From positions 62,001-126,000 of the forward strand of contig QPMI01000544.1 of assembly GCA_004431415.1 (NCBI GenBank): DNA of 64,000 nt, in the 5' to 3' direction. Of this stretch, positions 15,827-54,698 are shown piece after piece. The position numbers were made by a program, and so were the translations under genes. This DNA is from Cyanophora paradoxa CCMP329 (lineage: Eukaryota > Plantae > Glaucophyta). The first letter of the stretch is position 1. Every line of letters begins with the position of its first letter. Under the pieces are notes generated by a model. That model searched no databases, was not told the origin of the DNA, and saw nothing but the letters and a program-made list of their open reading frames with translations.

Positions 15827-15841
15827 TAACCCCCCCGGGGG

Positions 15842-16230: not shown

Positions 16231-16351
16231 CCCGGGGCCGGGCCCGGTGGCCGGCCCGCCCGCCGGCCCCGGCCGCCGACGGCCGGGCCGGCCCGAGCCG
16301 CCCGACTCGGCGAGCCTGGCGACTCAGTGTACTACGGTAGAAGCTCTACTA

Positions 16352-16633: not shown

Positions 16634-17043
16634 TAGGCTACTAGGCTAGCTACTAGGCCGGGTAGGCCTGAGGCTAGCGTTAGCTACCCTAGCCTGATCA
16701 TAGTACCGTAGTACAGTGGTTCAACCGGTTTGCTTATAATTATTAGCCTAGTAGCCTAACTTTAGTAACACACACTCTGACAGCACACACTCCCGGAGTC
16801 CTGACCTCGCCGGTCACACACACTGCGAGGCGAACCATAAGCCGCAGATCACTCGGTCACCAGCTGCGAACCTTCAAAGAATGTCGTGCGCATGCGCACG
16901 CGACGGCTTAGGATAAGCAATGCGCGAAAATCGCCATGCGCGCCGTGCGCGGGTTGATTGGCGTATACACATGCCATGGCCCATGCCAGAACTAGTCAAT
17001 GCTCTAGATCTAGATCCAATCCGATCGTCGTTACCTTAAGCTT

Positions 17044-18214
17044 GTGATCAGTGTCGTCAACGTGGCTCTGAACAAGTCAGTGACAGCAAACAACCAGTAC
17101 TTGGATTACGGACCGGAAAGACTGACGAGTGCGTTTAATGTAATTCTCAAACTCAAGATCTTGCTAAACGTGCATGCGCGTGACCGCAGATGGGGACAAA
17201 AGCAATGTTTTCTACCACAGCACCGACGCAGATACCACCGTCTCCATCAATCTCGAAGTGCCCTGTTTGACTAGATTGGGCATGAGTCGTGAAAAATTGA
17301 AGTATGACGCGATTTTCAGGCTGACTACCTAATCAGCTCCGTCGACATCTACAATGTACGAATAAATTTGATTGATGTCACTCGTCACTTACAGCTCTGT
17401 ATTCGCACCTGCGCAGCGTACCGATTGTGCGCGAATCCTTTCATTTACAGCCGTGGACTTTCGGCAATGCGCTGCAACATTGGCGCATTCGTGTTTAACT
17501 GCACACGTCCGAATAATGACCTTGCGCACCCAGGCTGCTCGGACAGGTTGAAGAATTTCAACATCTCGGTCTACGATGACGGCAAGCTGGTCTGCTCGCG
17601 ATCGCTTCAATATGAAAACTTAATGACCGCGTCATTTAATTAGCATATATACACCTTGGCCAATGCTAACTTGATTCGTGCTCATCCTGTGGATGAGCTA
17701 GGTCTATGCATCCGACAAGCTAGATGCGAATTCCGCTGCGAAGTTCAGCCACCCACTCACCAACATTACTGGTGAGCCCTAATTACAACGTTGCTGCTGA
17801 TTACAACGCGTGCGATCATATCGGCGTTAAAAAATACAGCCTTCTACTCATACTTAGATTCGGGCAAACTAAAACAACAGTCTAATCTATGTTTTTCGCA
17901 GGAGATCAGGTTACAATCAGTAAACCAGCGGGATGTGCGTTTTTCAATGCTCGAGGCTCGCGATCGGTCAATATCATCCGAAATCAATGATGACGATGCA
18001 TCCTCGTGAATGCGCAGATTACTTGAACATCAACGAAGTCGAAGTTATGGCACGGTTAAATCAAGCCCGGATCCAGTGCTTCTGTCACGCCGCCGGCTCT
18101 GCTCTCGACCTGCCGGAACCTTTCCTCAGTCGAGACTCGTCCATCTCTCAACCGGACAGCCAAGTGAACATGCCCTCGATCTTGAACGCCGAGTGCAAGT
18201 GCGCCTTCGTCTAG
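17044..18214 (+). CDS. Multi-exon gene with F-type lectin / galactose-binding-like domain, copy 1; start uncertain
   Basis: Spliced pieces NVALNKSVTANNQY, DGDKSNVFYHS, YLISSVDIYN, CSDRLKNFNISV and YLNINEVEV follow the fucolectin motif order. Confidence 0.7.
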
Positions 18215-18288
18215 GCCTTCTATATTGTAGCTACGTAAAGAAAACTGCTATTAACGTTACTAACGCAACTTAGATCGGCATCTGGGGA

Positions 18289-19948
18289 ATGGGTCAAGTC
18301 ATCAATCAGTACGTGATCCGTATCGATCGTACGCGTGGTGATCGATATCATTATGAAGGTGCGCGCAGAGCTGCACGATTCGCTTTATTTTGGCAAGACG
18401 TACACTACTATCAACGCCCCGAAAACGTGCCTTGCGAGGTTGTTCAATGGTTTGTGGAATCAGTACTGCACCAGTGCTATATGCAGCTACTAGAACTGTA
18501 TCACATGAAGTAACTTAAGCTTACACCGCCCACCACGTGCACATGTAACTCTGGTCTACAGGAGATACAACCAACGCCTGTGAGACTGCAAGCCCGTACG
18601 GGGAACGCTTCCTTCTGGTGCCTATTACGGATCAGGAAAATATGTGTACGCATACGTAGTGCATGTCTTCAACCATCTCGAATTCTAAAAGCTGAATCGT
18701 TCCATATCCAGTTGGTGGGACGCCACAGGCACTCTCTCCGGCACAACCCTCAATTGCACGTGCTTCTTTCTCATGCCAGATTTCGATCTTCGCATTATTA
18801 CATTCCTGAACTATTTTCAATGCACTTCGCGAGCAGGGTGAACAGCGCGTTGGCAAGCGGCTACTCCATGTATACGAATGATGTGAAACGTGCCTCCATC
18901 GATCTCAATTCGGTCTACGGCGCAGGCTCGGATGGAAAGCTGGTACTCTCTACATGCATATCAAAGCGAGATCAATATAGTTGACCGTCACAAAATGCAG
19001 GTTTTGCTGCCAGAGCAGCGGGAGAGTCTTTCTTACATTAAAGACTTCCGTTTTTCGACGAAGTGCACCAATGCATCTGGGGACGAAGTGCGTGCACGTG
19101 CTTGCAGGCAACTTTGCACTCTTAGCTCCTCTTAATGTTTTTCATCATTTTCTATCGCGAACTCGCAGCAAAGTACACCGCAACGTGCCAGGGAGCTGAC
19201 GGGACATCGACGTCATCTCTCGACATTGCAAACACGTACATCTACAATGACAACGTGAGCACCTGCAGCTGCACTCGTAGCATTGCGAGCCACACAAGTT
19301 CGTAACCGTTTTACAGGGTCAGGCTGTGTACAGCAAGGACGCCAGCCCTTCGTGCGGGATTTACTATTGCATTTTCGATCGGCCACACACATTTTGTTAC
19401 GGCGATACATATTGAGACAACACGCAGGCACCCGCGGAGCATCATTCTGTGCAACATTCAATGGGCTGCCGATAAGAAGTCCTTCTTGTACACTTGCCCC
19501 AAGGTTGCCGCTCTCGCTATGATCGCGATCAGTACAATATGCCGTTAAATTTGTACTCCGGATGAACAGGAGATGAAATTCGACGACAAATCGGTGACTT
19601 TGGACACGGACGGAAAACTGGTGAATGGAAACCGATCCTTGATACAGCATATTATTATATTGGAACCACGCGCATGCTGACTTCGCTTTCTAAGGTGCCT
19701 CTGGGGAAGCTGCTGAGCCGGCTTGAGGAAGACGTCCAGGTCGCTATCAACGTGCGCTCTTTAATTTCGCGATCGAGAGATTTCATAAGTCTCATGTTTT
19801 CATGTGTATGCTTTTACAGGACGATAACGATTGGGACGGAGATAGCCTCGACTGCTCGGCTGAAGCTGATCGCGACTCGGACCTGAGCGAGGCCTTCGAT
19901 GAATTTGATTCCAGCAGTTACGCGGAGGCCTTCATCACGGTTGCATAA
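18289..19948 (+). CDS. Probable multi-exon gene of unknown function, copy 1
   Basis: Short coding-like segments bounded by AG/GT (e.g. VLLPEQRESLSYIKDFRF, VPLGKLLSRLEEDVQ) and an acidic last exon ending in TAATAA. Confidence 0.35.
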
Positions 19949-21739
19949 TAAGCAAATGAGTGTATGCGCAATGACGATCGCGAGCTCATTTCATCTGTCA
20001 CAAATTCGAAGCTCTGAATTCGAATCCTATTAAGGGCCACTGACTTGCCGCAGTGCCGCGCGCGTCAGTTGGGTCCGGGGAAGGGCATTTAACCTCGGCG
20101 AATCCAATTGCAAGATCTAGATGCAGAGGCAGCTGCAGGGACTTAAGCTTAAGCTTAAGAAGGCGCGCGCGCGGTGGCCGGGCGAGCCGCCGGGCCGGCT
20201 CCGGCCGAGGCTGGCCATGCCAGGCGAGCTCAGCGGCTGTCCTCGCGATCGAGGCGAGCTGGCCTAGCGAGCTAGCTATAGCTATGTATACGTAAGGCGC
20301 GGCCTTGCATTGGGAAGGGGAGGGAACCTTAAGCTTGCAAATTGTCTGGCCATATGCATGGACGTGCTCGAGCTCCTGCCAGGCTGCGCATGCCCGCGGC
20401 CGTCGCGCGCGTGAGGCGTGGCGGGTGCACGATCATTGTACGAGTGCGCATGTGCTGCGGGTGCACGTGCGTCACGGCGTGGCTATATATATATATATAG
20501 CTAGGGGCTGGCCTAGCTATAGGCCTCCGCGCGATCTGGGCGCGGGCGCGGGGACGCTGCTCAAGCTCACGTTCCGCTCAGAAAGCGGCGCAGCGGGCCA
20601 GCTGCAGCTCATGATCAGCGGCGCCGGCTGCAGCAGGCATGCGCATCGCGCGCGCGCGGGGCTCTGCGCATGCGTCGCGATCGCGCGGCGCGCGCGCGCG
20701 CCGCGCGGCCGCGGGCGTCGGCTTGTTGCAAGTGGCATAGCCGGCCAAGTGCGGTCGACGTCGGCTTGCGGCCGGCTTGTGCAATTGCGTCGGGGCGCGG
20801 TTGGCGCGGGTGAAGCGTGCGCGGCTGGCGCGGCTAGCCGCTGAGCCACAGCAAACTGCCGCGCGCGCGCGCGAGAGGCGTAACCATTGTTGAGCTGAGC
20901 CGAGCTGCGGCGCCCGGGGGAGAAAGCGTGGGGGGAGAAAGTGGCCGGGGGAGACCGTAAAAAGACTTTTGCAGGGTAAGTTAACGCACTCTCCAATGTG
21001 ATTGGCTAGCGCGCGCGGCGTCCTCCCACGCGACCGCGTTCGCGCCCGGCCTCGCTCTTGCAGTACGGAATGTCGAACATGATGCGCGCAACGACCTCGA
21101 ACTGGTCTGGCCCGTATATCTGCTCCCTGTGCGTCGCTGGACCCCTTTTTGTCCCGGGTGTTGGTGCCTGTTCCTGGATCACCCTTTGGTCGGACGGGAC
21201 CGGAGACATGGTTTCGGGGTCCCCTGGGGATGCGCTTTTAGGATGTACCGCGCGGCCCCGGTTTTGCGGAGGTCGGGGAAATGCAAATGGGATTTGGGGT
21301 AGGGTTGGGCCCAAGGGACAGGGACAGGGAAGTGTTTTACCCTTCCCAAAAACGTTTATGTTAATCCAGGCCTAGGTCCCTCATTTTAAATTTTGAGTTC
21401 GAATTCGATTTAATTTCCGGACTCGTGACTTCGATTTCGCACTTATATTACGTGAGATATCGATACTGTACATGTATACGTACAGGATCACGCAACTACG
21501 TATACGAGATATGCCGGCGCCATGTCGCAACGCAAATTTAAAGACTGACGGCGTAGCATATCGAGCGATGACGGCAGAATCAAAATCGCTACTATAGACA
21601 GGAACGAATCACGCACACTATACTATGATATATAGCCAGTGCTGATCATCGGATCATGATCAAAAGCAGGAATTCGAAGTGTACATTCAAATGAGTTCGA
21701 CGGTCGACGTCGAAAAGCGTACGCATACATGGATTGCTG

Positions 21740-22185
21740 TACATCGACAGCATACTATAAAGCCCCGAATTTGAAGCGAAACGAAACTCCCAAAGCCTTA
21801 TTGTGCTTATATTATCTAGCCATCAAGAACTAGCTAAACGGCCTCAGTGCCGGATTTCAAGGAGGCCTCGGCGCCCGATCGATCGCGAAGATCTAGATCG
21901 AGAGCCCGCGATCCGTGCTTGCCTTGTGCTTCCAGTGCGCTTCCAGTACATCGACAGCACACTATAGAGCTCCGAATTTGAGGCTTATGGAAATGGCTTC
22001 ATGATCAGTGCCGGAACCAGAACCAGCTAAACGGCTTCATGATCAGAAAAGATCCAGGGCCAGAACCAGCTAAACGGCATCATGATCAGTGCCGGCGCCG
22101 GATTTCAGGGAGGCCTCGCGATCGGCGCCTGATTGATCGCGAAGAGCCCCGCGATCCGCGCTTAAGCTTGCCTTGTGCTTCCAGT
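21740..22185. repeat. Old local tandem duplication of the PDE 3' end (two diverged units of about 210-240 bp; repeated at about 40340-40790)
   Basis: 21826-21936 aligns to 22062-22185, and 21741-21775 aligns to 21948-21983. Confidence 0.85.
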
Positions 22186-24300
22186 TCTCGTAGTTGCGCC
22201 GCGCCCCGGCGAAGACAACCTCCCGGACGCCCGGGAAGACGGAGGCGACCGCGCCCTGCAAGATATTAGATGTCAGATGTAAGAAGATAAAGCGCTATAG
22301 CTAGCTAGCTATATAGCGCGAGCTATATATAATCACCATCAAGGGAAGGACGATGAACTCCATGAAGCCGACCTGGCTCGCTGCGAAGTTCTGGTTGTGC
22401 CGGTCCACTGGCAAGGCAACGGGAACAGTAAGCGAAACCCGCCCGCTCATGATAGATCTAGAGGCTGCGATCGTGAGCACGAGCTCGAGCGGGCGCACTG
22501 AAGGGGCTGATGGGATGCCGAGCTCGCGCTCCCGGTCCCCTGCGCTCCGGTGTTTCGGGAGCGCTAGCGAGGCGACGGCGGCCGCTCATGATCAGATGAT
22601 CAGATTCGCTTATGATCACCTGACACATGAACTCGACGGAGATGCGCTCGGACCACACGGTGTGCAGGGCGAGGGTCTTGGCGGCGTGGCCGATGTCGCA
22701 GGTCTGCCCCGCCCGCCCTTCGGTCAGCGGCCGAGCACAGGTACAGGTGGACGTACGAATTCGAAGGGGTGGGGTGGGGGTGGGGGGATTCACGGGGGGA
22801 GGGCGAGGGGGGAGGAGGAGTTGGGGGGTTCGGGGAGGAAGAAGAGCGCTTATATGGGCCGGGCCACGGCCACCCACCTTCATCGTCGCTGCCAGGAGCA
22901 CGCGCTTGTCGTCGCTCTGCGAGGACGCGCGCGCGCGTGAGCGAGGCGGACGGGCGCGCGGGCCGCTACAGCTAGCGCTGGCTGCTAGATCGATGGATGG
23001 AGAGGGGGCGCGGGTCGCGATGGCGCGCCTGGAGGGGTCCCATCAGGAGCGGCTGCACCACGACGACGGAGGAGGCGCGGGCCGCTGGGGCCGGAGCGCG
23101 CCGCCCGGTGCCAGTGGCCGCTGGAACACCGCCATTGAGGCGGGGGCCGAGCGGAGCGCGGCCGCCGCCCGGCCCGGGCGCGCCGCGGTCCTCCAGCGGC
23201 TCCGTCGCCGGCCCAAGCGCGCCGGCCGCCACGCACTTGCGGAAATCTGCGCGCCAAGCTCGAAATTCGAGCTGGAATATGGAGCGCGTGCGGCGACGCA
23301 CTGCCCAGGACCTCGAAATCTGCAAATCCGGTGATCAGGCCGAGCGAAGGAACCAAAGTAATTTTTTTATAAGCTCAAGGGCGCACGCTGCGCCATGTCG
23401 GTCGCCAGCACCATGTCGACCACGGTCCGCCTGAGCTCGCGCAGCGCGGCCTTGGGCATGCCCTGATCACGAGGCCCGGCTGGCCGCTCAAGCCGAGCGG
23501 GGGCCGGCGGGGCGGGGCGGGGCGGGGGGCTGGGCGGGCGAGCCTGGAGGAAGTTGTGGCGGGACTCGCGCAGGGCGATCCAGGCGGCGCTCGCGTGGTG
23601 GCTCTCCAGCGGGCTGCGAACGAAGCGAAGCGCGGGGCTCGGGGCTCGGGCCGGCCGGGCCGGGCCGGGACGCGCCCTCCGAATTCGCGGGGGCGGGGGC
23701 CGGGCGGGGCGGACCTCCTGTCGTTGTAGCGCAGGGCGAGCGGGCGGAAGTGGAGACGAGGAAGCTGTGGAGGCGCGGCGCGACCGTGAGGCAAGGCGGC
23801 CGGGCGAAAGGCGAGGGGGGTGGGAGAAGGGGGGTGGGGGGAGGGGGGAGGAGGCCGCGCGCACTTGTTGTTCACGCCAGGCTGCGTGACGCACGAAAAA
23901 CAGAGAAACCGGCCGCCAGTCAGCAGTAAGAAAGGAAAGGGTACCGCGTACGATGGCTGCTGGCCATGGGCTAGCGGGGCCGCCACTCACGTGTTCGTAA
24001 TCTGAGCACAAACCGGGAAAGTAATCAGGCCTAGCCTCGAGCGCGCGATCGGGGGCGTCGACGCGTCCGACGGTCGGAGCGCGCACCGTGAATGATGCAA
24101 GCGAGGATAGCGGCCAGCTTGTCCTCTGTTCAGCCGACATAAACACATTCATCAGAATATTAATGCAGAAACGGAAGCCCGATCAAGTCGGAGGGAAGGA
24201 AATAGGGGAGGACCGTCTGAGAGCCGGGCGCCGACGCCGCCGCGGGTGAGGACGCACACCATCGATTGAACCACGTCCGCCGCGTGGGCGCGGCTGCCGG
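22070..24300 (-). pseudogene. 5'-truncated copy of the class I phosphodiesterase gene (catalytic-domain exons only)
   Basis: Exons encode HAADVVQS, IIHDYEHPGVNN, LESHHA, VLATDM, DIGHAAK and SQVGFMEFIVLP. Upstream exons are removed by the duplication junction at about 24455. Confidence 0.8.
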
Positions 24301-24637
24301 CGGGGCGCCTTCAGCGCGGACCCCTACATATAGCTACGTATACATCGTTGCTTATCGATCGGAGCTCTAGATCTAGCGCTCTTGCGCTCTTGTTGGATTC
24401 CGATGGCTCGCGATCGCGGGGACTCCGGGGATCCAGAGCCCGCCTGCACTCGGAGATCTAGATCTAGATATAGATTTATCATCGTATGGCGTATGCGGGC
24501 CGGGGGCGCGGCGAGCCGGAGCGCGTGCAGCCAGCAGGGCTTGCGGCGCGCGTCGGCGAGCTCCGGCCGTGGGCCCGGGGCCCGGGGCCCGGGGCTGGCC
24601 ATGGGCGCGAGGCATGTGCGAGGCGTGAGAGCGGGTG

Positions 24638-25622
24638 CAGCTGCAGGCGGTCTTCTGCTTGGCTTGATCATGAATAAATCTAGAGGTGGGGGGGCGGGGG
24701 GGAGGGGGGAGGGGGGCGGGGGGGGGGGGGGGGGGGGCAGAGGTAGGGGCGGGGGGCGCTTTCAAATTTTCGGGAGCACCAGAAATCTAGATCTAGAGCG
24801 GCCTTGAGGGAGGCCTGGACGTAAATGGGAAATAGCGTACCCTCAGATGCAGCTGAAGGCGGGAAGAAGTTTCGATCTGCTTGGCTTGAATAAATCCTAG
24901 AGGGGGGAGAGGGCAGAGGTAGGGCGGGGGGCGCTTTCAAATTTTCGGGAGCTCCAGAAATCAAGATCTAGAGCGGCCGCGGCCTTGAGGGAGGCCTGGA
25001 CGTAAATGGGAAACGCTGTAACCCCTGGCACACGAACTGAGTCTAGCCAGGGAGAAGCGGGGGGGGGGAAGGGGGGAGAGGGGGCTTTCTTACAATCACC
25101 CATATGCACGGCAGCCCGGCGGCCCCCCTCTCCCCCCCCTCGCCTCACCCTCCATGAGCCAATCCGAGCACACTGACATGATCATGATCATCAACGATTA
25201 TCGCAATAGTAATGATCAAGCACTAGGAATATTAAAATGAGATCTAAGCGTCGACGTCGGTCTAGATCTAGATCTAGATCTAAATCTGCGGCTGTCAAGA
25301 CGACACTAGCTATATAGATCAGATCCCGTCCCCGCACGCGCCTTCTAGATCTCACTCTAGATTTAGATGTCGCTCTCAATCTAAATGGCATCGATGCCAT
25401 GATCATCATATGCAGCTGCAGGCTGCAAGGAGAGCTGGCCGTGGGATACAGCGTTTCCCATTTACGTCCAGGGCTCCCCTATGGCCGGGGTGTCCCGCAG
25501 AGAGGAGAGCGGGGTATAGCGTTTCCCATTATCGTCCAGGGCTCCCCTATGGCCGGGGTCCCTCGCAGAGAGGATGGCTGTGGGGGTACAGCGTTTTCCA
25601 TTTACGTCCAAGGCTCCCCTTT
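24638..25622. repeat. Inverted-array element in unit 2 (2 left motifs, core, 3 right motifs)
   Basis: Same as 6298-7118 but with an extra diverged left unit at about 24736-24906. Confidence 0.9.
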
Positions 25623-27655
25623 CCCCTCGCTCTCTTCAGCCAACTGCAGGCCGACCGCATACCTCCCTCTCGCTCTCTCGACAGCTGGATGGGGGGTCGA
25701 GGAGGAGGCCCGAAAAGTCGAAAGATCTAGATCTAGCTAGGCGCCGTTCAACTCTCGCAGGCGACAATCCCAACACGATCATGTGGTGCGATTACGATCG
25801 AGCTGGCAGGGCGCCCACATCGATCGAGCTAGCCTACTAGGCGCCTCCCAGCCACCGGCCCGGGGCGGGACAGAAAGAATCCGAGGGGGGCAGATCTAGA
25901 GGCGCGCGCACTGCACGGCCGCGAGAGAGAGGAGCTCCGCCACCTCCCCGCCCGCCCGGGGTGCAGAGCTGGACCGCCGTGCGTGTCCCGGTCCGCTGGT
26001 GTGCGTCTCCTTTGCCTGCTCCTGCAGCTGAGCGAGGGAGCGACGAGGGGTCCCCGAGACCGGGGCGCCCGGGCCCGGGCGCGATGGGGGCAGGGCATCG
26101 AGAGCTCGAGCGAGCGGTCTCGATCGCGAGAGGGCGCACCGGTACGGCCCTGCCGAAGAGGCCGCCGTCGGCCCGGACGACGACCGAGGGCTCCGAGCGG
26201 GACCGGCCGCGGCGCGCGCGCCTCCGGTCCCGAAACCGTCCCGAGCCGGTCCAGCTCGGGGCGACGTCGAGCAGGCTGGCATTGGCCACATGCATGGCTG
26301 GCGAGACGCGCGCAGTGCGCCTAGCTGTAGCCGTAGGCCAATGGCAAGCTCAAGGCTAGGCCATGCGCGCGCCCGACGCGCCGCGGCCGCTCGGGCTCCT
26401 CGTGCTCGCGATCGAGCCCCCGCCACTCGATTCTTCTCCGTCTGCAGCTGCAGCTGGATCTGCGCGCCGCGGCGCGCGTTACGTGGCGGCGGGGCCGACG
26501 GGGCGCATCGGCGCATGCGCACTAGCACTGCGGCAGCTGCGCATGCAGGCCCGGGGCAGGAGACGCCCACGTGCGCGTGGGACGAGCTCTGAGATCGACA
26601 GCGCGCCATGGCGATCTCGATTCCACGCGTTCAAGGCCGCACGGCCAGCGCATCGCCGATCTAGATCTAGATCAAGACGGCTCGAACTCGATGCTGCATG
26701 ACGGCTTCACTCGCTGCGATGCCGATGCCGATGCCGATGCAATCGAGCCGATGCATGTGCCGCTCTTCCCCGCAAGCTCGCTCGACCGCACTGGGGGCGG
26801 CCGCCCGCGCTGTTCTCGCCGGCACGGGGCAAAGGATCCAGACTTGGAGCGTGCAGTCCGCCAGTGATCGGGCCCTAGATCTCCTTTCCGCACGACTTAA
26901 GCGCGGGGCGCGCGGGGCCACGGGGCGGCCTCGAGCGCGAGGTGCGACTGTACCCCACTGGCCCGCCCCGCTCTCTTGGATCGGCGGCTCCGACCCACCT
27001 CTGCGGTGCGGTACGCTCCTCTCGGATTTGGGCCCCCGTTCCGACCGGATTCGCAGACCCTGCGCCTTTCCGCAACATTCGATCCGCGAGCTACGAGCAC
27101 GCGCGATCCACCGTGGCACGCGCGCCATTTGAGAGCCGCGCTGCGAGCGCGGACGATGGCCTGCCGTCCACCGCAGCCGCCCCCGTGCGCCCCTGCCATC
27201 CGATCTGCGACCGCGGCCATCTCGCACCTTTCTCCCTCGATGGCGTCGCCCGATCGGCCCTCCACGGTGCACGCCGGCTCTTAGAATGGGTCTGGCCGCC
27301 TCTGGAAGACGCAGCGACGCCGGGGCTCGCAGGTCGCCGAGCTGGAGACGGGAATCTCTTCTTCTTGCATCCTCGGTTCGTACGGCGCTAAGCCTCGCCG
27401 ACCGCGCTCCCCGGGTCGCGCTCGCGTGCTCACCGACCCCTCAGCGGTGGCGGGGCGGCGTGGGACGCTTCGTTCTCTTCGGGCGGGCTGGGCGGGGGCG
27501 GCACCCGCGGGATCGGGCGGACGAGGCCGAGCGGGGGCCGATCCGTCGGCTCCGGCAGCTGCGGCGCGACCGCCGGCTCCATCCCTTTCTCTTCCCTCTT
27601 TCCGGCGCGCCCCCGTGTCCGGCGCGCCGTCCGGCCCGGTTCCTTTTGGCCGCGG

Positions 27656-30600
27656 TCACGGCCCGCGGTTCTTCCGCGGCCTCCCGCGCGCCCGCGGGGC
27701 CCCCGAGCCGCCCCGTACGGCGGCCCCCGCACGCGGCGTCGGAGGAGCGGGGGGCGAGGACGGCCCGCCCCCCAGGCCCAGCAGGTCGGAGATGCGGGCC
27801 GGGGCGTGCGGATGTCGACGGCGCCATTGCGGGCATCGTACCTCACCGGCGCGAGGGTGCGCACGCCCGTCCACTCGCGCGCGCTGCCCTCTGAGCTCGG
27901 CGTCCAGAGCGCCCCGAACCGGCGGAGGACGGCCCAGCGCGACTCGTACTCGCCGCTCGGGAGGCGCACCATCTGCACCAGCCGGGCGAACACGGTCCGG
28001 GGCAGCGGGTCCGCCGCGTGCGTCGCCACCGCCGCCGCCACCTGCCCCGGGGGTACGGGCTCGCGCTGACCCACCTCAGGTGCCACACGGGCCGCGACGG
28101 CGGGTCCGCGGGCTGCGCGGCGGGGAGAGCGGGGCGCTCCGGGCCGGAGACGCCGCGGGGGAGGCGGCCCGACGCCCCTTGGTCTCCGCCCCGCGTCCCG
28201 TCCCCGACGCCCCGCCCCCGCGGCGGGCCCTCGTGCGGCTCCCGCTGCCGTTGGGGCAGGTCTGCGCGTGCCTTCGGGCCCCCGCCGCCGTCTGAAAGGT
28301 CTGGCGTCGGTGAGACGGTGCGCGTGCGCGCGCGCGCGCTCGCTCCCCCTCGCTCGCTCGCGGAAGGGTGGGGCGGGGCGGGCTCACCCGTCGGCAGGGC
28401 TCGCAGTACCGGCCCTCTCCGATTGCGAGGTCGAGCTCCATCTGGTCTCCCGGGTCGAGGCGCCGCCGCTGCCACGGGAACCGCTTCGGCTTTCGCGGCC
28501 GCTCCTCTTCCTCCTCTTCCTCTTCCTCCTCTTCCTCTTCCTCTTCCTCCTCTTGCTCCTCCTCCTCCTCCTCCTCTTCCTCTTCCTCCTCTTCTTTGCC
28601 GCCCTCTGTCTCGCTCCGGCTCCCGCTCCGGCTCCCGCTCCGCTCCCGCTTCCGCTCCGGCTCTCCGGCTCCCTCCTTTCCGGGCGGGGTACCGCCTCCC
28701 CGCGGGGACGGGCGGCGGTGCGCGGCGGGACCGACGTCGGCGTCGCGCCCGTCGACGTCTCGGGAGCGCGGGGCGAGCTCGGAGGCGGCAGAGGGGCGAC
28801 CGCAAAGGGTACGGCGGTGCGGACGGGTACGGCGGTGGGACGGGTACGGCGGCGGGCGCCTCGCCGGGGCCCGGCCCGCCCGGGTCCGGATCGGCGGGGA
28901 GGAGGGCCGGCGGCGAGTCGCGGTCGGCGGCCCCCGTGGACCGCTCCCGCTCGGCGGCGCGGCGGCGCTCGTGCTCCTCGGCCAGGCGCTGGAGGTACGC
29001 GACGGCGGCCGTCGCCGTGCGCTGCCGCGCGCTGGCGTCGTAGTGCGTCGTCGCCGTCTGCGGCGTGTGCGCCAGGAGGCGCGCCACGCCCTCGGTCACC
29101 GCCGCCGCCGCGTCCCCCTCGATCAGGTTCACCGCCGCCTGGTCCCGCACGTGCGTCGTGATGACCGCCCGCATCGTCTTGGCCGTCACAGGCACCCCGG
29201 TGTAGCGCACCATCACCTGCGCGCGCGCGCGCGCGGGCGCGCGGGGCGCCGGCGTCAGCGTCGGCGTCGGGATTCGAGCCCACGCAGTAGGTTCGCTCCC
29301 CCTCTTCCCCCCCTCCCCCCCTCCCCCCTCCTCCCCCCCTCCTTCTCCCCCCCCCCCCCCCCCCCCCCTCTTCTCCCCGAGCGCACCTTTCTGACAAAGG
29401 CCGCCCAGCCGCTCTCGGAGAGGCAGGTGCCGAGGCTCGAGGCAAAGAGCCAGCCCTGGTCGGGCCCGCCCGGCGGCAGGAGGAGGGCGCGGAACCGCTC
29501 GATGTAGACGTCGAGCGGCCCCTGGAGGCAGTCGGCGATCGGCACGATCATCGCGCCGTGGGACCTGCGCGGCCCGGCCTCGGCGCGGGCGGGAGGGGGA
29601 GGGGCAGGGGGGTACGAGGGCGCGGGGGCGCGCACTTGGCCGTCTTCGAGACGAGCTCGCCGGTCTCCCCGTGGCGCATCTCGAGGAGGCTCAGGTGCCA
29701 CCGCCCGCCGTCGCGGCGCAGCGTGTGACCGATGCGCAGGCGCCGCACGACGCCGACGCGGGCCGGCGTCACCGAGATGAACCCGATGAGCACGGCCTCG
29801 CGCAGCAGCCGGGCCTTGTCCAGCTCGAGCGGCGCCCGCTCGTACGCCGCGAGCGCCTCGACCCGCGCGGACAGCACCGCGTCGAACGAGACCCAGTTCG
29901 GTCCGCGCGGCCGCCACCCCCGCTGCTGCTTCTTCTCCTTTTCGAGCTGCGTCTTCAGGTTCCGGAGGGGGCGCGCGTGGGGACCCTCGGAGGACCCTCC
30001 GCCCGGCCCGCCCGACGTACCCCCTCCGCCGCCGCCGCCGCCGCCGCCGCCAGAGGTGCGGGAGCAGACAAAGGTGTAGGCCTGCATGATGCTCTGCGTG
30101 TACCCCGCGAGCGTGCCGGGCGCGAGACGGCGCTCCTCGCGCAGGTACTGCAGGAAGCGGACGTAGATCTCGACAAAGTCGGCCCGCGCCAGCAGGTCCA
30201 TGGTGAGGGGCCCGACGCGCTCGCGCTCCTTGACGTACCCCAGCAGGCGGCCGATCGTCCCCACGTCGTTGACGAGCACCGTGCTGCGCTCCGCCGCGCC
30301 CCCCTGGCGGTCGGGGTTGAGGGCCGAGGTGCGCCACGCCTGAAACGCCGCCAGCTGGTTCTTCAGCTCCCGTGACATCTCCGCCTCGCGCAGGGCGTAC
30401 GGCGCCAGGCGCTCCGGCTCCGGCTCGCCCCCCCCGTCGGCCGCCTCTTCCTCCTCCTCCTCCCCCTCCCCCTCCTCCTTGCCCTCTCCTCCCTCGGGGG
30501 CTTCGAGGGGCCCTGCGTCCTCGCCCTCTTCGGCCTCGGCGGACGATCCCGAGGAGCGGGAAGAGGACGAGGAGAGCGAGGGCGGGGGCGGGGGCGAGGG

Positions 30601-32403
30601 CAAGGGCCCCGGCGGCGCGGCGGCGGGGGCGGAGGAGGAGGAGGAGGGGGAGGGGCCGGGGCCGGCGGAGGGGCCCCCTACCCCCCGCCGACGGGCGGCT
30701 CGGGGGGGTACCGAGGGGGGCGGCGGGGGGAGGACGACGCGCTCGGCGTCGGGCAGCGAGTCCTCGTCAAAGAGGACGACCTCCTTGTCCACCATCCCGC
30801 TCTCCAGGAGCGTCCGGTACGCCTCGCGCTTCTCCGCGATGAAGCGCCCGTTCTCCTCCGAGATCGCCGCCGACACCGCCTCGCCCCTTCGCACGTAGGC
30901 CAGGCTCCCCGCGGAGATCTCGTCGCCCCAGGGGAACCCCGTCATCACCTCCGTCGTGAGCGCCTCGGCGAACCAGAGCGTCCACGGCCCGCACTGGTAC
31001 CCGTCCCCGACCTGCAGGCGCCCGCGCGTCTCCGTGACGAAGCGGTAGCGGGGAAAGGCGGCCTTGCAGGCGCGCTCGAGCCTGGGGTCGGGCGGGCCGC
31101 CGAGCGAGTCCCAGAAGCGCGTCTGCTTCGACGCCCCGTCCACCGCGAGGAGGGTCCAGTGGCCCCCGCTCGATCCCCCCTGGGTGCGCTCCCCGCCGCG
31201 CCTCAGGTTGCCCACGCTGACGGGGCAGAGGACGCAGGTCCCGCGCTCGGCGGCGCCCAGGGCCCTGCGCGCCCGCCGCGCCTCGTCGGCGCGCGCGTAC
31301 CGGAGCAGCAGCGACGTCACGATCTCGACGTGCATGGGGTAGAGGGCCTTGATCCGTCCCCCGGCGCCGGCGCGGAGCAGCAGCAGCGTGAGGACGTTGG
31401 CGATCTCGGCGTCGCGGAGCCAGCTCTTGCGGCCGAAGATCGAGATGCGGCGGGCCAGCGGGAGGGGCCGGGAGGGCCCCGCAGCGGCCACGGCGGCCGG
31501 GTCCGCCCCCTCGAGCACGAGGCGGGCCCTCTGGAACTCGGCGGCCAGCCCCTCTCTCCGGTCCGGCAGCGCCCCGAGGAAGCGCTCCGCCCCCAGGGCG
31601 CTGACAAAGGCCCACCTGCGCGCAGATCCGTGCGTCGCGACGTCGGCCCCGAGGCCGCCGTAGTGGACGAGGGTGCGGGTGAGGAGGGCGAGCCGCTCGC
31701 GCCCCACCGTCCGCGTGCTCGCCTCGAAGCGGTGCGGCCCGCCCACCGCGAGGTCCGGGTGCCGCCTCATGATCTCCATCCGGACGCAGTTCGTGGAGCG
31801 CGAGTCCCCGTAGGCCGCCTGGGCGAGGCTCGCCAGCGGGATCCACCACTCGAGCTCCGGCACCTGCGTACCCCCCCCCCCGGCCCCCACCGTTGCCGGC
31901 GGCGATGGGAAGGGGGGTACAGGGGTACGCACCTCGATCCGCCGCGCGCGCACGGCCAGGAACCGATCCCCCGCGGCGCGCAGGACCTGCATCTCGAGGC
32001 GCTCGAGACGGGCCTGCCTCCGGCGCTCCAGCGCGGCGTAGAGCTCGGCCGCCCCGCGGTGCATGCGCCCGTCCTGCGAGCGCTCCCACGTGTTGCTCAC
32101 GATCGGCTCGACGTAGCGCAGGGGCAGGACCCGCGGCGGCCGCTCCTGCGCGTCGTGCACGTTGCGCGCGATGGCGCCCAGCGTCTCCAGGAGGAGGATG
32201 GCGTTTTCGTCGGGCAGCGGGCGCGTCGGGACCCGGTGCGCCTCGGTGAGCGCCTCGTCGCCGCTCGCGATGCCCAGCAGACGCCTGAGCTCGGCCGTGC
32301 AGACGCAGGGGCCGGCGTCCGTCCGCAGGACCACGAGGCGGGCCGGCCCGTACGGGCCCTCGAACTCGGCCAGCTCGTACGTGTCCGTGACCGCGGAGAA
32401 CAT
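27656..32403 (-). mobile_element. Tyrosine recombinase-Ulp1/C48 protease multidomain gene, copy 2 (best preserved; at least 5 introns)
   Basis: 951-aa ORF plus downstream exons. C48 motifs: HWTLLAVD, FWDSL, QVGDGYQCGPW. SAM-like segment: FLQYLREERRLAPGTLAGY. YR motifs: R (TPAR), K (KTAK|SHG), KTMR, LAHT, THYD. Also a CxxC-x12-H-x3-C finger and a C-terminal RGRPRK. Introns include 31864-31932, 29565-29635 and 29217-29385. Confidence 0.9.
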
Positions 32404-33811
32404 TCTCTGCTCCCCGCGGCCGCCCCTCTCCGAGGTCGGGCGCGCGGGGGGCTTTTAGTCGCGGCGCCCCGGCCCCCTCTCGGGCCTTTGTCGGCCCCTT
32501 AGTTGCAGTACCCTGAGGCCTTTGCCGGCCCGCTTCATTGCAGTACCCCTGCCTGCCTCGCGACCTCGCATTCATTGCAGTACCCCTGCCCGCCTCGCTT
32601 CCCCCACCTCTTTTCCCGCCCCTCGGGGCCGCTTCCGAGGCCTCGCTCCGCGCGCCTTGCGCGGCGCGAGCGCCGGCGCCGAGCGCGCTATCAGCGTAGA
32701 ACGGCGTGCAGAGCACGCACGGCGCCTTTCCGCGCCGTTTGCGCGCGTCTGGAGCGCCCCTGGGGGGAGGGGGGCCCCCCCGGGGTCGCGATCGAGGGCC
32801 GAAAGAGGGGCCGCATATACCGCACTAAAATTAGCATCAATTAGAGGGGGTCCCCTGCATCCCTTCGACGGCCTTTGTGCGGATCCGAAAATTCATTTGA
32901 CCCCTTTTTCGGGGGGGGTGGGACTGGTATGGCAATTTTCCCTTCCCCAATTATTGGGCTATCCTGAAAAAAATATATACCGGTAGAACTACTGTGTAAT
33001 TGGCTGGGATCCGGTACCGAGAAAGTATATATATCATGATCATATGCATATGCATAGTATGCTCCTAGATATGCTCTTAGTAGCTATAGAACGTCATATG
33101 CGAAGTTCTAGGTTGCCATTGGCCGAGGCAATTTGACGGTTCGATTCGAATTCACCCCACCGGTACCGAGCACAGCCCGCGGGAAAACCGGGCCTCGAAT
33201 TCGAACCGATGGCAGAATTAGCAGTTTCATCTAGGCGCGCTTAATATCAGCTAATAACTGCCGGATCTGCCAGCTTTTTGCCCGCTCTCCCCGCCCGCCC
33301 GCCGCGTCCCCCGCCGCAGGAGGCCGCGCAGCGCCGCCGCCGGGCGCCCCGGATGCGAGGGGACGACGCCGCGACGCCGCCGACGCCGCCAGCGGACGCC
33401 GAGCCCGCCGTGCAGCCCCGCCGGCGCCCGCGCTCCCCGCCCGCCCGCCGCGCGCCCCGCCGCATGCAGGAGGCCGCGGCGCAGGAACCTAGCGGGGAAG
33501 GGAAGGCGGAAGGCGGGCGGGAAGGCGGGGCTAGCGCTCTCACGACCGCTAGGTTGACGCCGACGGCATTTAATAAAACTGCTAGAAAATTACAGCAGCT
33601 TTACAAAATTTAATCTGTTATATATAAAGGTAATAAACCCTACTCTCAGAGTCTGAGGCACAGCGGACGTATGAGACCGTACGACGGTTCTGCATCATAC
33701 CTCGAGTCTCGTTGTCCTGTCTCGCGCATTCTGTGGTCACTCCTGGGAGTCCTGGCGGACCCGGCCCACACACCCGGGGCCCGGCCCGCCCGGGGGCCGG
33801 ATTCGACATGT

Positions 33812-34398
33812 ACAGAGCTACATTGGATCTCAGCGCGTATTACTCCGTACCCCTGCGCTATGTGGGGCCGTGCCGAGTGCCACGGAGTAGGGTTTATGAA
33901 AATAAGTATTACAAGAAAAAGCGATTACGCAGCATGAAAATAAGGTGGCGGCGCGATATATTATAGCTGAGAATTACGGGGGCTGGCTCGTGTAATTATA
34001 AGCCAAGCCGGGGCCGGGAGGCCAAGCGCGTAGGGGAGGGAGCAGAGAAGGCGATTCCGCTGGGGGTACCCCGTTGCGGTCCAGGCTTGCGGGCGATGCG
34101 CGCCGGTTCGCCTGACTCTACGAAGCGCCGTGTTCGCGCCGGTTGGGCAGAGCTAGCCGAGCCGGGGGCCGGCCTCCGTCCCCGTCGGCTTGCGGGCCAA
34201 GCTTAAGCCAGCCCCCGCAATTTTCGAATATATATTTTCACCACCTGTCTCCAAATTTCGTGCACTTTAATTTTTACGCCTCTTTTTAACAGTTTTAGAG
34301 AAATATCCAAACTCGACGACCTATTCAGGCGACCAATCAAATCGTTCCTGCAATTGGGGGTACGGAGTAATACGCGCTGAGATCCAATGTAGCTCTGT
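33812..34398. mobile_element. MITE with 41-42-bp TIRs, copy in unit 2
   Basis: Same TIRs as 15244-15826. Confidence 0.85.
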
Positions 34399-34413
34399 TA
34401 ACCCCCCCGGGGG

Positions 34414-34805
34414 TAGGGTTGCCGTGTCAATTGACATGTCAGTCTACCCTGTGGACATTGACATCGGACATTTGACATGTCAACCGACATGTCAACTGAC
34501 ATTGATTATTATATTATATTATATTATATTATATTCCAAAAGTGAGGCGGCGGGGCAGCTTGGGCGAGGTCCTCAGCGCCTCCCCGCTGCCCTCTGCCTC
34601 CTTCCTAACATCAGAAACGTGCTGCTAACGCTTGCAGAGTGCTGCTTACATGTTTTAATCATGATTTGCATGCGTTTTGGCTTGTTTGGAGGGGTATCCC
34701 CCCCAATGTCAATGGACATGTCAACCCGGACCCGTGGACATTGACATGACATGTCAACTGACATTGACATGTCAATGTCAATTGACATCGGACACGGCAA
34801 CCCTA
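34414..34805. mobile_element. hAT-type MITE, copy in unit 2
   Basis: TIR TAGGGTTGCCGTGTC with a perfect 8-bp TSD CCCGGGGG at 34406-34413 and 34806-34813. Confidence 0.9.
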
Positions 34806-34930
34806 CCCGGGGGCCGGGGCCCGGTGGCCGGCCCGCCCGGCCGGCCCCCGGCCGCCGACGGCCGGGCCGGCCCGAGCCGCCCGACTCGGCGAGCCTGGCG
34901 ACTCAGTGTACTACGGTAGAAGCTCTACTA

Positions 34931-35215
34931 CCGTAGAACAGGAAAATACTGTATTCTGATAATTAGTGGAGCCCGAACTTATAATTATAGTGGACCGAAA
35001 TCTTGACTTAGTCCACTAATTTCGGGATCCAGTATTTCCCTAGGCCTCAGATTCCCTGTTCCTGAGCTGCCCCATACAGTACCCCCCAAAATTACCGCCC
35101 CATACAAGCCTGACAAGGTTTTGGTCCACTAATTTCGGGCTCCAGTATTTTGCCTAAGGGAGGGCCAAGTTTTCTAGTCCACTAATTCCCGGTCCACTAT
35201 TTTCCTGCTCTACGG
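34931..35215. mobile_element. Tc1/mariner-type MITE, copy in unit 2
   Basis: TA|CCGTAG...CTACGG|TA ends, as at 16352-16633. Confidence 0.85.
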
Positions 35216-35627
35216 TAGGCTACTAGGCTAGCTACTAGGCCGGGTAGGCCCTGAGGCTAGCGTTAGCTACCCTAGCCTGATCATAGTACCGTAGTACAGT
35301 GGTTCAACCGGTTTGCTTATAATTATTAGCCTAGTAGCCTAACTTTAGTAACACACACTCTGACAGCACACACTCCCGGAGTCCTGACCTCGCCGGTCAC
35401 ACACACTGCGAGGCGAACCATAAGCCGCAGATCACTCGGTCACCAGCTGCGAACCTTCAAAGAATGTCGTGCGCATGCGCACGCGACGGCTTAGGATAAG
35501 CAATGCGCGAAAATCGCCATGCGCGCCGTGCGCGGGGTTGATTGGCGTATACACATGCCATGGCCCATGCCAGAACTAGTCAATGCTCTAGATCTAGATC
35601 CAATCCGATCGTCGTTACCTTAAGCTT

Positions 35628-36801
35628 GTGATCAGTGTCGTCAACGTGGCTCTGAACAAGTCAGTGACAGCAAACAACCAGTACTTGGATTACGGACCGG
35701 AAAGACTGACGAGTGCGTTTAATGTAATTCTCAAACTCAAGATCTTGCTAAACGTGCATGCGCGTGACCGCAGATGGGGACAAAAGCAATGTTTTCTACC
35801 ACAGCACCGACGCAGATACCACCGTCTCCATCAATCTCGAAGTGCCCTGTTTGACTAGATTGGGCATGAGTCGTGAAAAATTGAAGTATGACGCGATTTT
35901 CAGGCTGACTACCTAATCAGCTCCGTCGACATCTACAATGTACGAATAAATTTGATTGATGTCACTCGTCACTTACAGCTCTGTATTCGCACCTGCGCAG
36001 CGTACCGATTGTGCGCGAATCCTTTCATTTACAGCCGTGGACTTTCGGCAATGCGCTGCAACATTGGCGCATTCGTGTTTAACTGCACACGTCCGAATAA
36101 TGACCTTGCGCACCCAGGCTGCTCGGACAGGTTGAAGAATTTCAACATCTCGGTCTACGATGACGGCAAGCTGGTCTGCTCGCGATCGCTTCAATATGAA
36201 AACTTAATGACCGCGTCATTTAATTAGCATATATACACCTTGGCCAATGCTAACTTGATTCGTGCTCATCCTGTGGATGAGCTAGGTCTATGCATCCGAC
36301 AAGCTAGATGCGAATTCCGCTGCGAAGTTCAGCCACCCACTCACCAACATTACTGGTGAGCCCTAATTACAACGTTGCTGCTGATTACAACGCGTGCGAT
36401 CATATCGGCGTTAAAAAATACAGCCTTCTACTCATACTTAGATTCGGGCAAACTAAAACAACAGTCTAATCTATGTTTTTCGCAGGAGATCAGGTTACAA
36501 TCAGTAAACCAGCGGGATGTGCGTTTTTCAATGCTCGAGGCTCGCGATCGGTCAATATCATCCGAAATCAATGATGACGATGCATCCTCGTGAATGCGCA
36601 GATTACTTGAACATCAACGAAGTCGAAGTTATGGGCACGGTTAAATCAAGCCCCGGATCCAGTGCTTCTGTCACGCCGCCGGCTCTGCTCTCGACCTGCC
36701 GGAACCTTTCCCTCAGTCGAGACTCGTCCATCTCTCAACCGGACAGCCAAGTGAACATGCCCTCGATCTTGAACGCCGAGTGCAAGTGCGCCTTCGTCTA
36801 G
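35628..36801 (+). CDS. F-type lectin-like gene, copy 2
   Basis: Duplicate of 17044-18214, with extra bases in homopolymers of the last exon. Confidence 0.65.
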
Positions 36802-36876
36802 GCCTTCTATATTGTAGCTACGTAAAAGAAAACTGCTATTAACGTTACTAACGCAACTTAGATCGGCATCTGGGGA

Positions 36877-38540
36877 ATGGGTCAAGTCATCAATCAGTAC
36901 GTGATCCGTATCGATCGTACGCGTGGTGATCGATATCATTATGAAGGTGCGCGCAGAGCTGCACGATTCGCTTTATTTTGGCAAGACGTACACTACTATC
37001 AACGCCCCGAAAACGTGCCTTGCGAGGTTGTTCAATGGTTTGTGGAATCAGTACTGCACCAGTGCTATATGCAGCTACTAGAACTGTATCACATGAAGTA
37101 ACTTAAGCTTACACCGCCCACCACGTGCACATGTAAACTCTGGTCTACAGGAGATACAACCAACGCCTGTGAGACTGCAAGCCCGTACGGGGGAACGCTT
37201 CCTTCTGGTGCCTATTACGGATCAGGAAAATATGTGTACGCATACGTAGTGCATGTCTTCAACCATCTCGAATTCTAAAAGCTGAATCGTTCCATATCCA
37301 GTTGGTGGGACGCCACAGGCACTCTCTCCGGCACAACCCTCAATTGCACGTGCTTCTTTCTCATGCCAGATTTCGATCTTCGCATTATTACATTCCTGAA
37401 CTATTTTCAATGCACTTCGCGAGCAGGGGTGAACAGCGCGTTGGCAAGCGGCTACTCCATGTATACGAATGATGTGAAACGTGCCTCCATCGATCTCAAT
37501 TCGGTCTACGGCGCAGGCTCGGATGGAAAGCTGGTACTCTCTACATGCATATCAAAGCGAGATCAATATAGTTGACCGTCACAAAATGCAGGTTTTGCTG
37601 CCAGAGCAGCGGGAGAGTCTTTCTTACATTAAAGACTTCCGTTTTTCGACGAAGTGCACCAATGCATCTGGGGACGGAAGTGCGTGCACGTGCTTGCAGG
37701 CAACTTTGCACTCTTAGCTCCTCTTAATGTTTTTCATCATTTTCTATCGCGAACTCGCAGCAAAGTACACCGCAACGTGCCAGGGAGCTGACGGGACATC
37801 GACGTCATCTCTCGACATTGCAAACACGTACATCTACAATGACAACGTGAGCACCTGCAGCTGCACTCGTAGCATTGCGAGCCACACAAGTTCGTAACCG
37901 TTTTACAGGGTCAGGCTGTGTACAGCAAGGACGCCAGCCCTTCGTGCGGGATTTACTATTGCATTTTCGATCGGCCACACACATTTTGTTACGGCGATAC
38001 ATATTGAGACAACACGCAGGCACCCGCGGAGCATCATTCTGTGCAACATTCAATGGGCTGCCGATAAGAAGTCCTTCTTGTACACTTGCCCCAAGGTTGC
38101 CGCTCTCGCTATGATCGCGATCAGTACAATATGCCGTTAAATTTGTACTCCGGATGAACAGGAGATGAAATTCGACGACAAATCGGTGACTTTGGACACG
38201 GACGGAAAACTGGTGAATGGAAACCGATCCTTGATACAGCATATTATTATATTGGAACCACGCGCATGCTGACTTCGCTTTCTAAGGTGCCTCTGGGGAA
38301 GCTGCTGAGCCGGCTTGAGGAAGACGTCCAGGTCGCTATCAACGTGCGCTCTTTAATTTCGCGATCGAGAGATTTCATAAGTCTCATGTTTTCATGTGTA
38401 TGCTTTTACAGGACGATAACGATTGGGACGGAGATAGCCTCGACTGCTCGGCTGAAGCTGATCGCGACTCGGACCTGAGCGAGGCCTTCGATGAATTTGA
38501 TTCCAGCAGTTACGCGGAGGCCTTCATCACGGTTGCATAA
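36877..38540 (+). CDS. Unknown multi-exon gene, copy 2
   Basis: Duplicate of 18289-19948. Confidence 0.35.
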
Positions 38541-40670
38541 TAAGCAAATGAGTGTATGCGCAATGACGATCGCGAGCTCATTTCATCTGTCACAAATTCG
38601 AAGCTCTGAATTCGAATCCTATTAAGGGCCACTGACTTGCCGCAGTGCCGCGCGCGTCAGTTGGGTCCGGGGAAGGGCATTTAACCTCGGCGAATCCAAT
38701 TGCAAGATCTAGATGCAGAGGGCAGCTGCAGGGACTTAAGCTTAAGCTTAAGAAGGCGCGCGCGCGGTGGCCGGGCGAGCCGCCGGGCCGGCTCCGGCCG
38801 AGGCTGGCCATGCCAGGCGAGCTCAGCGGCTGTCCTCGCGATCGAGGCGAGCTGGCCTAGCGAGCTAGCTATAGCTATGTATACGTAAGGCGCGGGCCTT
38901 GCATTGGGAAGGGGGAGGGAACCTTAAGCTTGCAAATTGTCTGGCCATATGCATGGACGTGCTCGAGCTCCTGCCAGGCTGCGCATGCCCCGCGGCCGTC
39001 GCGCGCGTGAGGCGTGGCGGGTGCACGATCATTGTACGAGTGCGCATGTGCTGCGGGTGCACGTGCGTCACGGCGTGGCTATATATATATATATAGCTAG
39101 GGGCTGGCCTAGCTATAGGCCTCCGCGCGATCTGGGCGCGGGCGCGGGGACGCTGCTCAAGCTCACGTTCCGCTCAGAAAGCGGCGCAGCGGGCCAGCTG
39201 CAGCTCATGATCAGCGGCGCCGGCTGCAGCAGGCATGCGCATCGCGCGCGCGCGGGGGCTCTGCGCATGCGTCGCGATCGCGCGGCGCGCGCGCGCGCCG
39301 CGCGGCCGCGGGCGTCGGCTTGTTGCAAGTGGCATAGCCGGCCAAGTGCGGTCGACGTCGGCTTGCGGCCGGCTTGTGCAATTGCGTCGGGGCGCGGTTG
39401 GCGCGGGTGAAGCGTGCGCGGCTGGCGCGGCTAGCCGCTGAGCCACAGCAAACTGCCGCGCGCGCGCGCGAGAGGCGTAACCATTGTTGAGCTGAGCCGA
39501 GCTGCGGCGCCCGGGGGAGAAAGCGTGGGGGGAGAAAGTGGCCGGGGGAGACCGTAAAAAGACTTTTGCAGGGTAAGTTAACGCACTCTCCAATGTGATT
39601 GGCTAGCGCGCGCGGCGTCCTCCCACGCGACCGCGTTCGCGCCCGGCCTCGCTCTTGCAGTACGGAATGTCGAACATGATGCGCGCAACGACCTCGAACT
39701 GGTCTGGCCCGTATATCTGCTCCCTGTGCGTCGCTGGACCCCTTTTTGTCCCGGGTGTTGGTGCCTGTTCCTGGATCACCCTTTGGTCGGACGGGACCGG
39801 GAGACATGGTTTCGGGGTCCCCTGGGGATGCGCTTTTAGGATGTACCGCGCGGCCCCGGTTTTGCGGAGGTCGGGGAAATGCAAATGGGATTTGGGGTAG
39901 GGTTGGGCCCAAGGGACAGGGACAGGGGAAGTGTTTTACCCTTCCCCAAAAACGTTTATGTTAATCCAGGCCTAGGTCCCTCATTTTAAATTTTGAGTTC
40001 GAATTCGATTTAATTTCCGGACTCGTGACTTCGATTTCGCACTTATATTACGTGAGATATCGATACTGTACATGTATACGTACAGGATCACGCAACTACG
40101 TATACGAGATATGCCGGCGCCATGTCGCAACGCAAATTTAAAGACTGACGGCGTAGCATATCGAGCGATGACGGCAGAATCAAAATCGCTACTATAGACA
40201 GGAACGAATCACGCACACTATACTATGATATATAGCCAGTGCTGATCATCGGATCATGATCAAAAGCAGGAATTCGAAGTGTACATTCAAATGAGTTCGA
40301 CGGTCGACGTCGAAAAGCGTACGCATACATGGATTGCTGTACATCGACAGCATACTATAAAGCCCCGAATTTGAAGCGAAACGAAACTCCCAAAGCCTTA
40401 TTGTGCTTATATTATCTAGCCATCAAGAACTAGCTAAACGGCCTCAGTGCCGGATTTCAAGGAGGCCTCGGCGCCCGATCGATCGCGAAGATCTAGATCG
40501 AGAGCCCCGCGATCCGTGCTTGCCTTGTGCTTCCAGTGCGCTTCCAGTACATCGACAGCACACTATAGAGCTCCGAATTTGAGGCTTATGGAAATGGCTT
40601 CATGATCAGTGCCGGAACCAGAACCAGCTAAACGGCTTCATGATCAGAAAAGATCCAGGGCCAGAACCAG

Positions 40671-54664: not shown

Positions 54665-54698
54665 GTCCGCCGCGCCCCGCCACGCCCGCCCGCCCGCC

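Follow-up and report, generated by a model that had tools for sequence, protein, structure and literature searches.

A probable tyrosine-recombinase transposase gene with a fused C48-type protease in the glaucophyte Cyanophora paradoxa

The described elements closest to the gene studied here are Cryptons that encode a C48 peptidase. According to the passages of Kojima and Jurka 2011 that deal with them (PMC3212892), C48 occurs with a tyrosine recombinase (YR) in the oomycete element CryptonF-2_PS and as a separate additional protein in some CryptonS; C48 in stramenopile Cryptons had also been mentioned in a sequence-only reading of our locus, and is in print for these cases. The gene lies on the reverse strand of a 64,000-nucleotide stretch of C. 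paradoxa CCMP329 DNA (contig QPMI01000544.1, positions 62,001 to 126,000), hereafter called the window. As far as these Cryptons are portrayed in the passages cited, it has in common with them that it is eukaryotic, lacks a reverse transcriptase (RT) and combines a YR with an Ulp1-type C48 peptidase. Its family differs from them by the absence of GCR1_C, NDC10_II and DUF3504 matches, by a Dachshund-like N-terminus, a C2HC finger and an AT-hook, and by a YR that scores with Phage_integrase and with cyanobacterial plasmid integrases. We consider it probable that the gene is the transposase gene of a YR DNA transposon family and encodes a single spliced multi-domain protein. The family likely works in a Crypton-like manner, yet matches no Crypton group described by Pfam.

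Other systems resemble the gene in single respects. Cyanobacterial plasmid integrases (BAZ78649.1, WP_015211597.1) belong to the same YR lineage by profile and tree but are plasmid-borne and without introns, and no protease motif was seen in them. Starships and DIRS/Ngaro elements are likewise eukaryotic YR mobile elements, whereas the window gene showed neither a DUF3435 match nor a cargo boundary, and RT or RNase H were not found with it. Recombinases of Polinton-like viruses (PLV) and virophages (OLV11-like; passages of Yutin et al. 2015, PMC4642659) share YR-mediated integration in algal genomes; they were set apart, without direct sequence comparison, by the lack of a capsid or ATPase gene seen near the window gene and of a confirmed relative in IMG/VR. 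Finally, the CE-clan proteases Ulp1/SENP, NEDP1, ChlaDUB, XopD and NopD exhibit the same H-D-Q-C order and fold as the window protease, which, unlike them, is fused to a recombinase. Full-text literature searches, whose coverage excludes Repbase, subscription papers and supplements, disclosed no description of the present protease-recombinase family. The C. paradoxa genome paper reports 11.5% unknown repeats, and the word recombinase does not occur in its main-text passages (PMC6704402).

The spliced gene and its protein domains

The features of the gene, all on the reverse strand, are as follows.

32403→27656: protease-recombinase gene, ATG at 32403
31933..32403: exon 1, start codon and Dachshund/SKI-homology-like N-terminal domain
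31864..31932: intron 1, 69 nt, GT-AG, in frame; its 23 amino acids (aa) are absent from the gene models P0001-P0006
29636..31863: exon 2, second N-terminal region (no fold assigned), protease, low-complexity linker and first part of the recombinase
30960..31430: CE-clan (C48/Ulp1-like) cysteine protease; His 31161, Asp 31110, Gln 31014, Cys 30993
28971..30414: tyrosine recombinase, exons 2-4, with SAM-like core-binding domain; R 29760, K 29646, KxxR 29180/29171, H 29069, Y 29042
29565..29635: intron 2, 71 nt, GT-AG; its removal restores KTAKSHG as in P0001
29387..29564: exon 3, 74% identity to P0001 852-912
29217..29386: intron 3, 170 nt, GT-AG, G-rich
28848..29216: exon 4, open part, holding KxxR, H and Y; the frame shifts near its 3′ end (intron or sequence error)
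28388..28777: linker, acidic tract (~28500-28597), ERPRKPKR-LDPGDQMELDLA segment and first half of the C2HC finger; matches P0001 1102-1163
28301..28387: intron 4, 87 nt, GT-AG, within the zinc finger
27802..28127: conserved C-terminal domain of ~110 aa, in two frames as assembled; 74% to P0001 1214-1299, 64% to P0003
27656..27799: tail with AT-hook RGRPRK (27691-27671) and final TGA, from a motif check and comparison with P0001

Joining the exons without three GT-AG introns (31932-31864, 29635-29565 and 29386-29217) yielded a stop-free model of 1082 codons, which could be aligned end to end with the EukProt gene model P0001 at 71% identity and showed 47-64% identity to P0002, P0003, P0005 and P0006. 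Inserts corresponding to the three introns are all missing from P0001, and the splice model is supported by these homologous gene models. Removal of intron 4 rebuilds a C-x2-C-x12-H-x3-C finger that is present in P0001, and the P0006 model keeps an intron-like insert at the same position.

The tail of the gene is broken as assembled: the frame changes near 28850-28780, an in-frame TGA (28078-28076) follows downstream of the finger, and the conserved tail aligns to P0001 and P0003 in three different frames. Two of these sites carry one additional base in a sister copy of the gene, and 151 of the 165 indel bases between the two units of the tandem duplication described below are adjacent to an identical base; the frame changes are therefore probably homopolymer sequence errors. 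An intron at 28074-28042 was ruled out, as homologs encode HLxWxSASP(Y/F)P there. In P0001, the protease, the YR, the finger and the AT-hook all reside in a single protein. The sequence-only reading had assigned the same modules and an acidic tract to one spliced product of the window gene. All motifs it cited are present at the expected places, and the homologous gene models agree with protease and YR in one protein. The AT-hook would belong to the same protein only if the frame breaks are sequence errors.

By its H-D-Q-C set and fold the window protein is a CE-clan/C48 protease. Sequence comparison matched it to ChlaDub2 (E=2.8e-4) and weakly to XopD, while its Pfam C48 score (E=0.022) stayed under the curated cut-off. 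The fold matches many CE-clan structures, a mix of deubiquitinases, deneddylases and deSUMOylases. The recombinase belongs to the tyrosine recombinase superfamily, as it possesses the catalytic set and the core-binding/catalytic fold. Of 68 family rows, all have R, K, R and H without exception and 65 have Y; in 38, the H of HxxR is a K. The N-terminal ~105 residues (~32382-32091) match Dachshund 1l8r (VIA Z=10.2, root mean square deviation (rmsd) 2.5, 94 aligned; Foldseek prob 1.00). This domain, an addition to those listed by the sequence-only reading, is predicted from its modelled fold to bind DNA. For the conserved C-terminal domain of ~110 aa no Pfam match was obtained. A PDB sequence search with the A1 family query and a word-index search with A1 (216-704 aa) gave no match.

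Pfam contains models for GCR1_C, NDC10_II, DUF3504 and DUF3435. The first three found no match in three scanned sets of family proteins (8, 35 and 12), while Phage_integrase matched 10 of 12. GCR1_C, the C-terminal domain of CryptonF, is lacking at E<=0.5 in P0001-P0006 and at E<=1 in the window exons, and DUF3435, which defines the Starship captain, matched neither the window exons nor any family protein scanned. As these four models do not match, we place the family outside the described groups. RT and RNase H, which stand beside the YR in DIRS, Ngaro and VIPER, were not found in a composition- and length-filtered set of open reading frames (ORFs). It comprised 124 of the 129 ORF pieces of at least 70 aa outside the sister copy; five repeat-derived pieces were omitted. 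None of the 124 gave a profile match to RT, RNase H, capsid, packaging ATPase or polymerase, although Pfam may lack models of PLV capsids; within this set, the statement of the sequence-only reading that no RT, capsid or polymerase gene is nearby was supported. Crypton traits in the broad sense are nevertheless present, namely a YR without RT among the window ORF pieces and dispersed multiple copies of the Cyanophora relatives. Cryptons further lack terminal inverted repeats and end in direct repeats of 4-6 bp.

We judge it decidedly unlikely that the gene comes from one of the described Crypton groups, for instance the C48-bearing CryptonF-2_PS or CryptonS type, and has strongly diverged within it. 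The published pairing of C48 and YR in CryptonF-2_PS and some CryptonS (passages of PMC3212892) would agree with this reading, as would the presence of the CryptonF-derived Ndc10 in the fold list. It is opposed by the missing GCR1_C, NDC10_II and DUF3504 matches against Phage_integrase in 10 of 12 proteins, and by the ranking of the folds. In Foldseek, a low-confidence model of the P0001 YR region (predicted local distance difference test (pLDDT) 55) matched XerA (E=4.7e-5) and also Cre. In VIA, the same weak model gave Z 8.6 for XerA (rmsd 16.9, 242 aligned, 14% identity) and Z 6.0 for Ndc10 (rmsd 6.1, 228 aligned, 4% identity). Moreover, the family profile gives much better scores to cyanobacterial plasmid integrases than to XerC/D: in a small set searched with the A1 profile, four of them gave 8e-30 to 1e-12 and XerC 0.012. 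Of the affinities proposed by the sequence-only reading, the one to Xer/Int-type enzymes rather than to the CryptonF-derived Ndc10 is favoured by the weak P0001 model, and the one to virophages and PLV is not supported, the IMG/VR scans having confirmed no relative.

Copies in Cyanophora and the wider recombinase lineage

Relatives were identified in one EukProt gene set as 11 gene models on 10 contigs. Four models are named Cyanophora paradoxa by accession and seven show the same naming pattern. Over aligned columns, P0003-P0006 (three contigs) share 94-99% identity, and between subfamilies identity is ~52%. P0005 and P0006 share a contig, so that a local duplication is possible. The models P0007 and P0014 extend into different host genes (EF-hand and WD-like, respectively), and the window YR is ~80% identical to its nearest Cyanophora model. 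The scattered relatives, some of them near-identical, make it likely that the family is mobile rather than domesticated. An immobile host gene family with a chromatin function is highly improbable. It would be in keeping with introns, a GC content at third codon positions (GC3) of 0.96, a long core frame free of stops and the recurrence of an intron-like insert at one position in a subfamily of 52% identity, but not with near-identical copies on different contigs, fragments, fusions to unrelated neighbours and the retained catalytic residues.

A three-YR-domain profile search yielded 1381 clusters at E<=0.001 and 524 at E<=1e-10. From full-length hits, 41 rows were hand-picked for a tree (LG+G4, rooted on distant XerC/XerD). 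The window and Cyanophora rows form a clade (support 100/100) within a 97/99 clade, to which a marine clade and another clade with a fused protease also belong. The latter (P0057, P0080, P0202-P0258) comprises 59 clusters, 51 with the H-D-Q-C motif and many with a chromodomain, from intronless genes on metagenome contigs of up to 297 kb. A single origin of the protease fusion across the clades was neither shown nor rejected by the approximately unbiased (AU) test (p=0.103), and no homology between the N-terminus of the Cyanophora proteins and those of the other clades was detected. Sister branches end in chromo, PHD or BAH-like tails, which fit nuclear chromatin targeting.

Outside the 97/99 clade stand a Gefionella okellyi clade, a Botryococcus braunii clade and cyanobacterial integrases, four of the six cyanobacterial rows being labelled by similarity only. 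P0135 matches 26 plasmid records, and all 20 of the 20 listed are cyanobacterial; no phage record matched it. In GTDB, the marine alignment found no match and the cyanobacteria-like alignment three cyanobacterial loci. By these sequence comparisons, integrases of cyanobacterial plasmids are the closest relatives found among prokaryotes. The algal YR clade P0141, P0151 and P0129 (with Botryococcus) is nested among cyanobacterial-type integrases, and a separate transfer is possible. P0101 is labelled as coming from a metagenome-assembled genome of Bdellovibrionales, yet grouped with the Gefionella protein, so that it may be a mis-binned eukaryotic contig.

Among marine metagenomes, 102 stretches with relatives were confirmed and 80 kept. 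In four of 19 loci of at least 5 kb, the YR region is enclosed by inverted repeats with 100% identity. In L008, arms of at least 5067 bp (2394-7460 / 16078-21144, 100% identical), which include a weak primase-helicase match, flank the YR, small genes and a DDE transposase insertion; possibly, this contig of 23.5 kb represents a complete linear element. L017 harbors two converging YR genes. L030, a 23-kb contig bounded by inverted repeats (2282-20847), encodes a YR that groups with a Prymnesium polylepis protein, a protelomerase, an SF2 helicase and a DnaJ-tailed ORF. By eye, SET-like and CE-protease-like ORFs were also noted on L030; its stand-alone CE-like ORF gave no score against the Cyanophora protease profile. 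No capsid was matched in the marine loci, though the libraries may lack such models.

These loci raise the question of whether the window gene is part or remnant of a larger, virus-like element bounded by inverted repeats instead of a stand-alone gene. We regard this as unlikely, though worth weighing. Besides the identical repeats, the L008 arms and the L030 protelomerase and helicase, a feature-based Atlas cluster labelled Preplasmiviricota (score 0.96; a lead only) and giant-virus YR-like proteins among the BFVD fold matches speak for it. The window, on the other hand, has no long inverted repeat, the gene is interrupted by four introns and lies among host-style neighbours, and the 709 ORFs next to the YR in the marine loci gave no match in the window outside the gene. 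IMG/VR scans with A1, A4, P0107 and A7 confirmed no relative, although scans with short exact motifs can miss distant ones; a scan with the L030 protelomerase found nothing. Five IMG/VR pattern matches were discarded for lack of tblastn support.

Several points weigh against a single-gene transposon. The marine sister elements are multi-gene and have long inverted repeats, so a single-gene structure is not the rule of the family. The tree was made without Crypton, DIRS, Starship or PLV rows, and confidence in the structure models is low (pLDDT 55 and 46). Neither element ends nor target sites or empty sites were found in the window, and both window copies are frame-broken as assembled, the sister copy throughout and the other in its tail, so that they could be dead. 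Our assignment of the gene as a transposon transposase takes these points into account. More tentatively, and with chances a little short of even, we propose an undescribed superfamily of YR mobile elements akin to cyanobacterial plasmid integrases. It would comprise spliced single-gene transposons of glaucophytes, the intronless protease-YR-chromodomain clade and ~23-kb linear elements of marine algae with multi-kb inverted repeats, paired recombinases, a helicase and a protelomerase, the protease acting as a built-in counter-silencing enzyme.

The tandem duplication and the surroundings of the gene

6110..43085: tandem duplication of 18.5 kb, units ~6110-24450 and 24450-43085, each with one gene copy
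9161..13862, reverse strand (~13862→9161): second gene copy (copy 1), 98% identical, with many single-base deletions

The duplicate had not been mentioned in the sequence-only reading. The units are 98.97% identical and differ by 23 substitutions, of which the few coding ones appeared synonymous by eye; the unit of copy 1 lacks 139 bases, mostly at homopolymer positions. The two copies have flanks in common, and no further copy of the flanks was found within the window. Since the right break falls within a host phosphodiesterase gene, the duplication is not an element boundary. The 18.5-kb unit itself was ruled out as an element, the phosphodiesterase exon YLDLPYHK being present once (43100, outside the unit) and the next exon in both copies. 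The unit may be duplicated host DNA, an assembly artefact or two haplotypes assembled in series. The phosphodiesterase gene (cyclic-nucleotide, intron-rich) lies at ~40900-43150 on the reverse strand, with a partial copy at ~22300-24450 cut by the duplication break. One of its metal-binding motifs reads CSDYEH, presumably a degenerate form.

Within the 124 ORF pieces, Pfam matched only GIY-YIG, WD40 and two weak ones. Further features of the window were the following.

660-1259, reverse strand: GIY-YIG nuclease ORF (Pfam E=1.3e-9)
2760-4460, reverse strand: intronless ORF of 567 aa, of no known family
4583-5803, 55938-58015 and 58844-59283: tandem arrays of 70-bp, 160-bp and 97-bp units, respectively
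32483-32590: three short motif repeats directly upstream of the gene
33812-33853/34357-34398: 42-bp perfect inverted repeat with 503 bp between its arms, a candidate for a small non-autonomous element
35400-38600: ~49% GC against 60-78% around it, without long ORFs or Pfam matches
53300-54700, forward strand: Armadillo/HEAT-repeat host gene
61859-63680, forward strand: WD40 ORFs close to the window end

Proposed mode of action and implications

By analogy with Cryptons (passages of PMC3212892 and PMC9977147), the recombinase would cut the element out, probably in circular form, and integrate it again where a short target sequence matches. The flanking DNA-binding modules may recognise the element ends and chromatin. 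The tethered protease might act on chromatin or repair proteins located at the element and take off their SUMO or a different ubiquitin-like modifier, thereby easing silencing or repair; alternatively, it could serve the self-processing of a polyprotein.

The known eukaryotic DNA elements with a YR belong to few lineages (Cryptons, Starships, viral integrases), and our data indicate another widespread one. Its breadth is reflected by the 1381 protein clusters and by named members from a glaucophyte, a haptophyte, a green alga and a malawimonad, and it ties cyanobacterial plasmids to nuclear elements of algae. A protease with intact catalytic sites that is tethered to a recombinase provides a direct test case for the removal of SUMO or ubiquitin marks by transposons against silencing, and the family may yield new site-specific recombinases that are active on chromatin.

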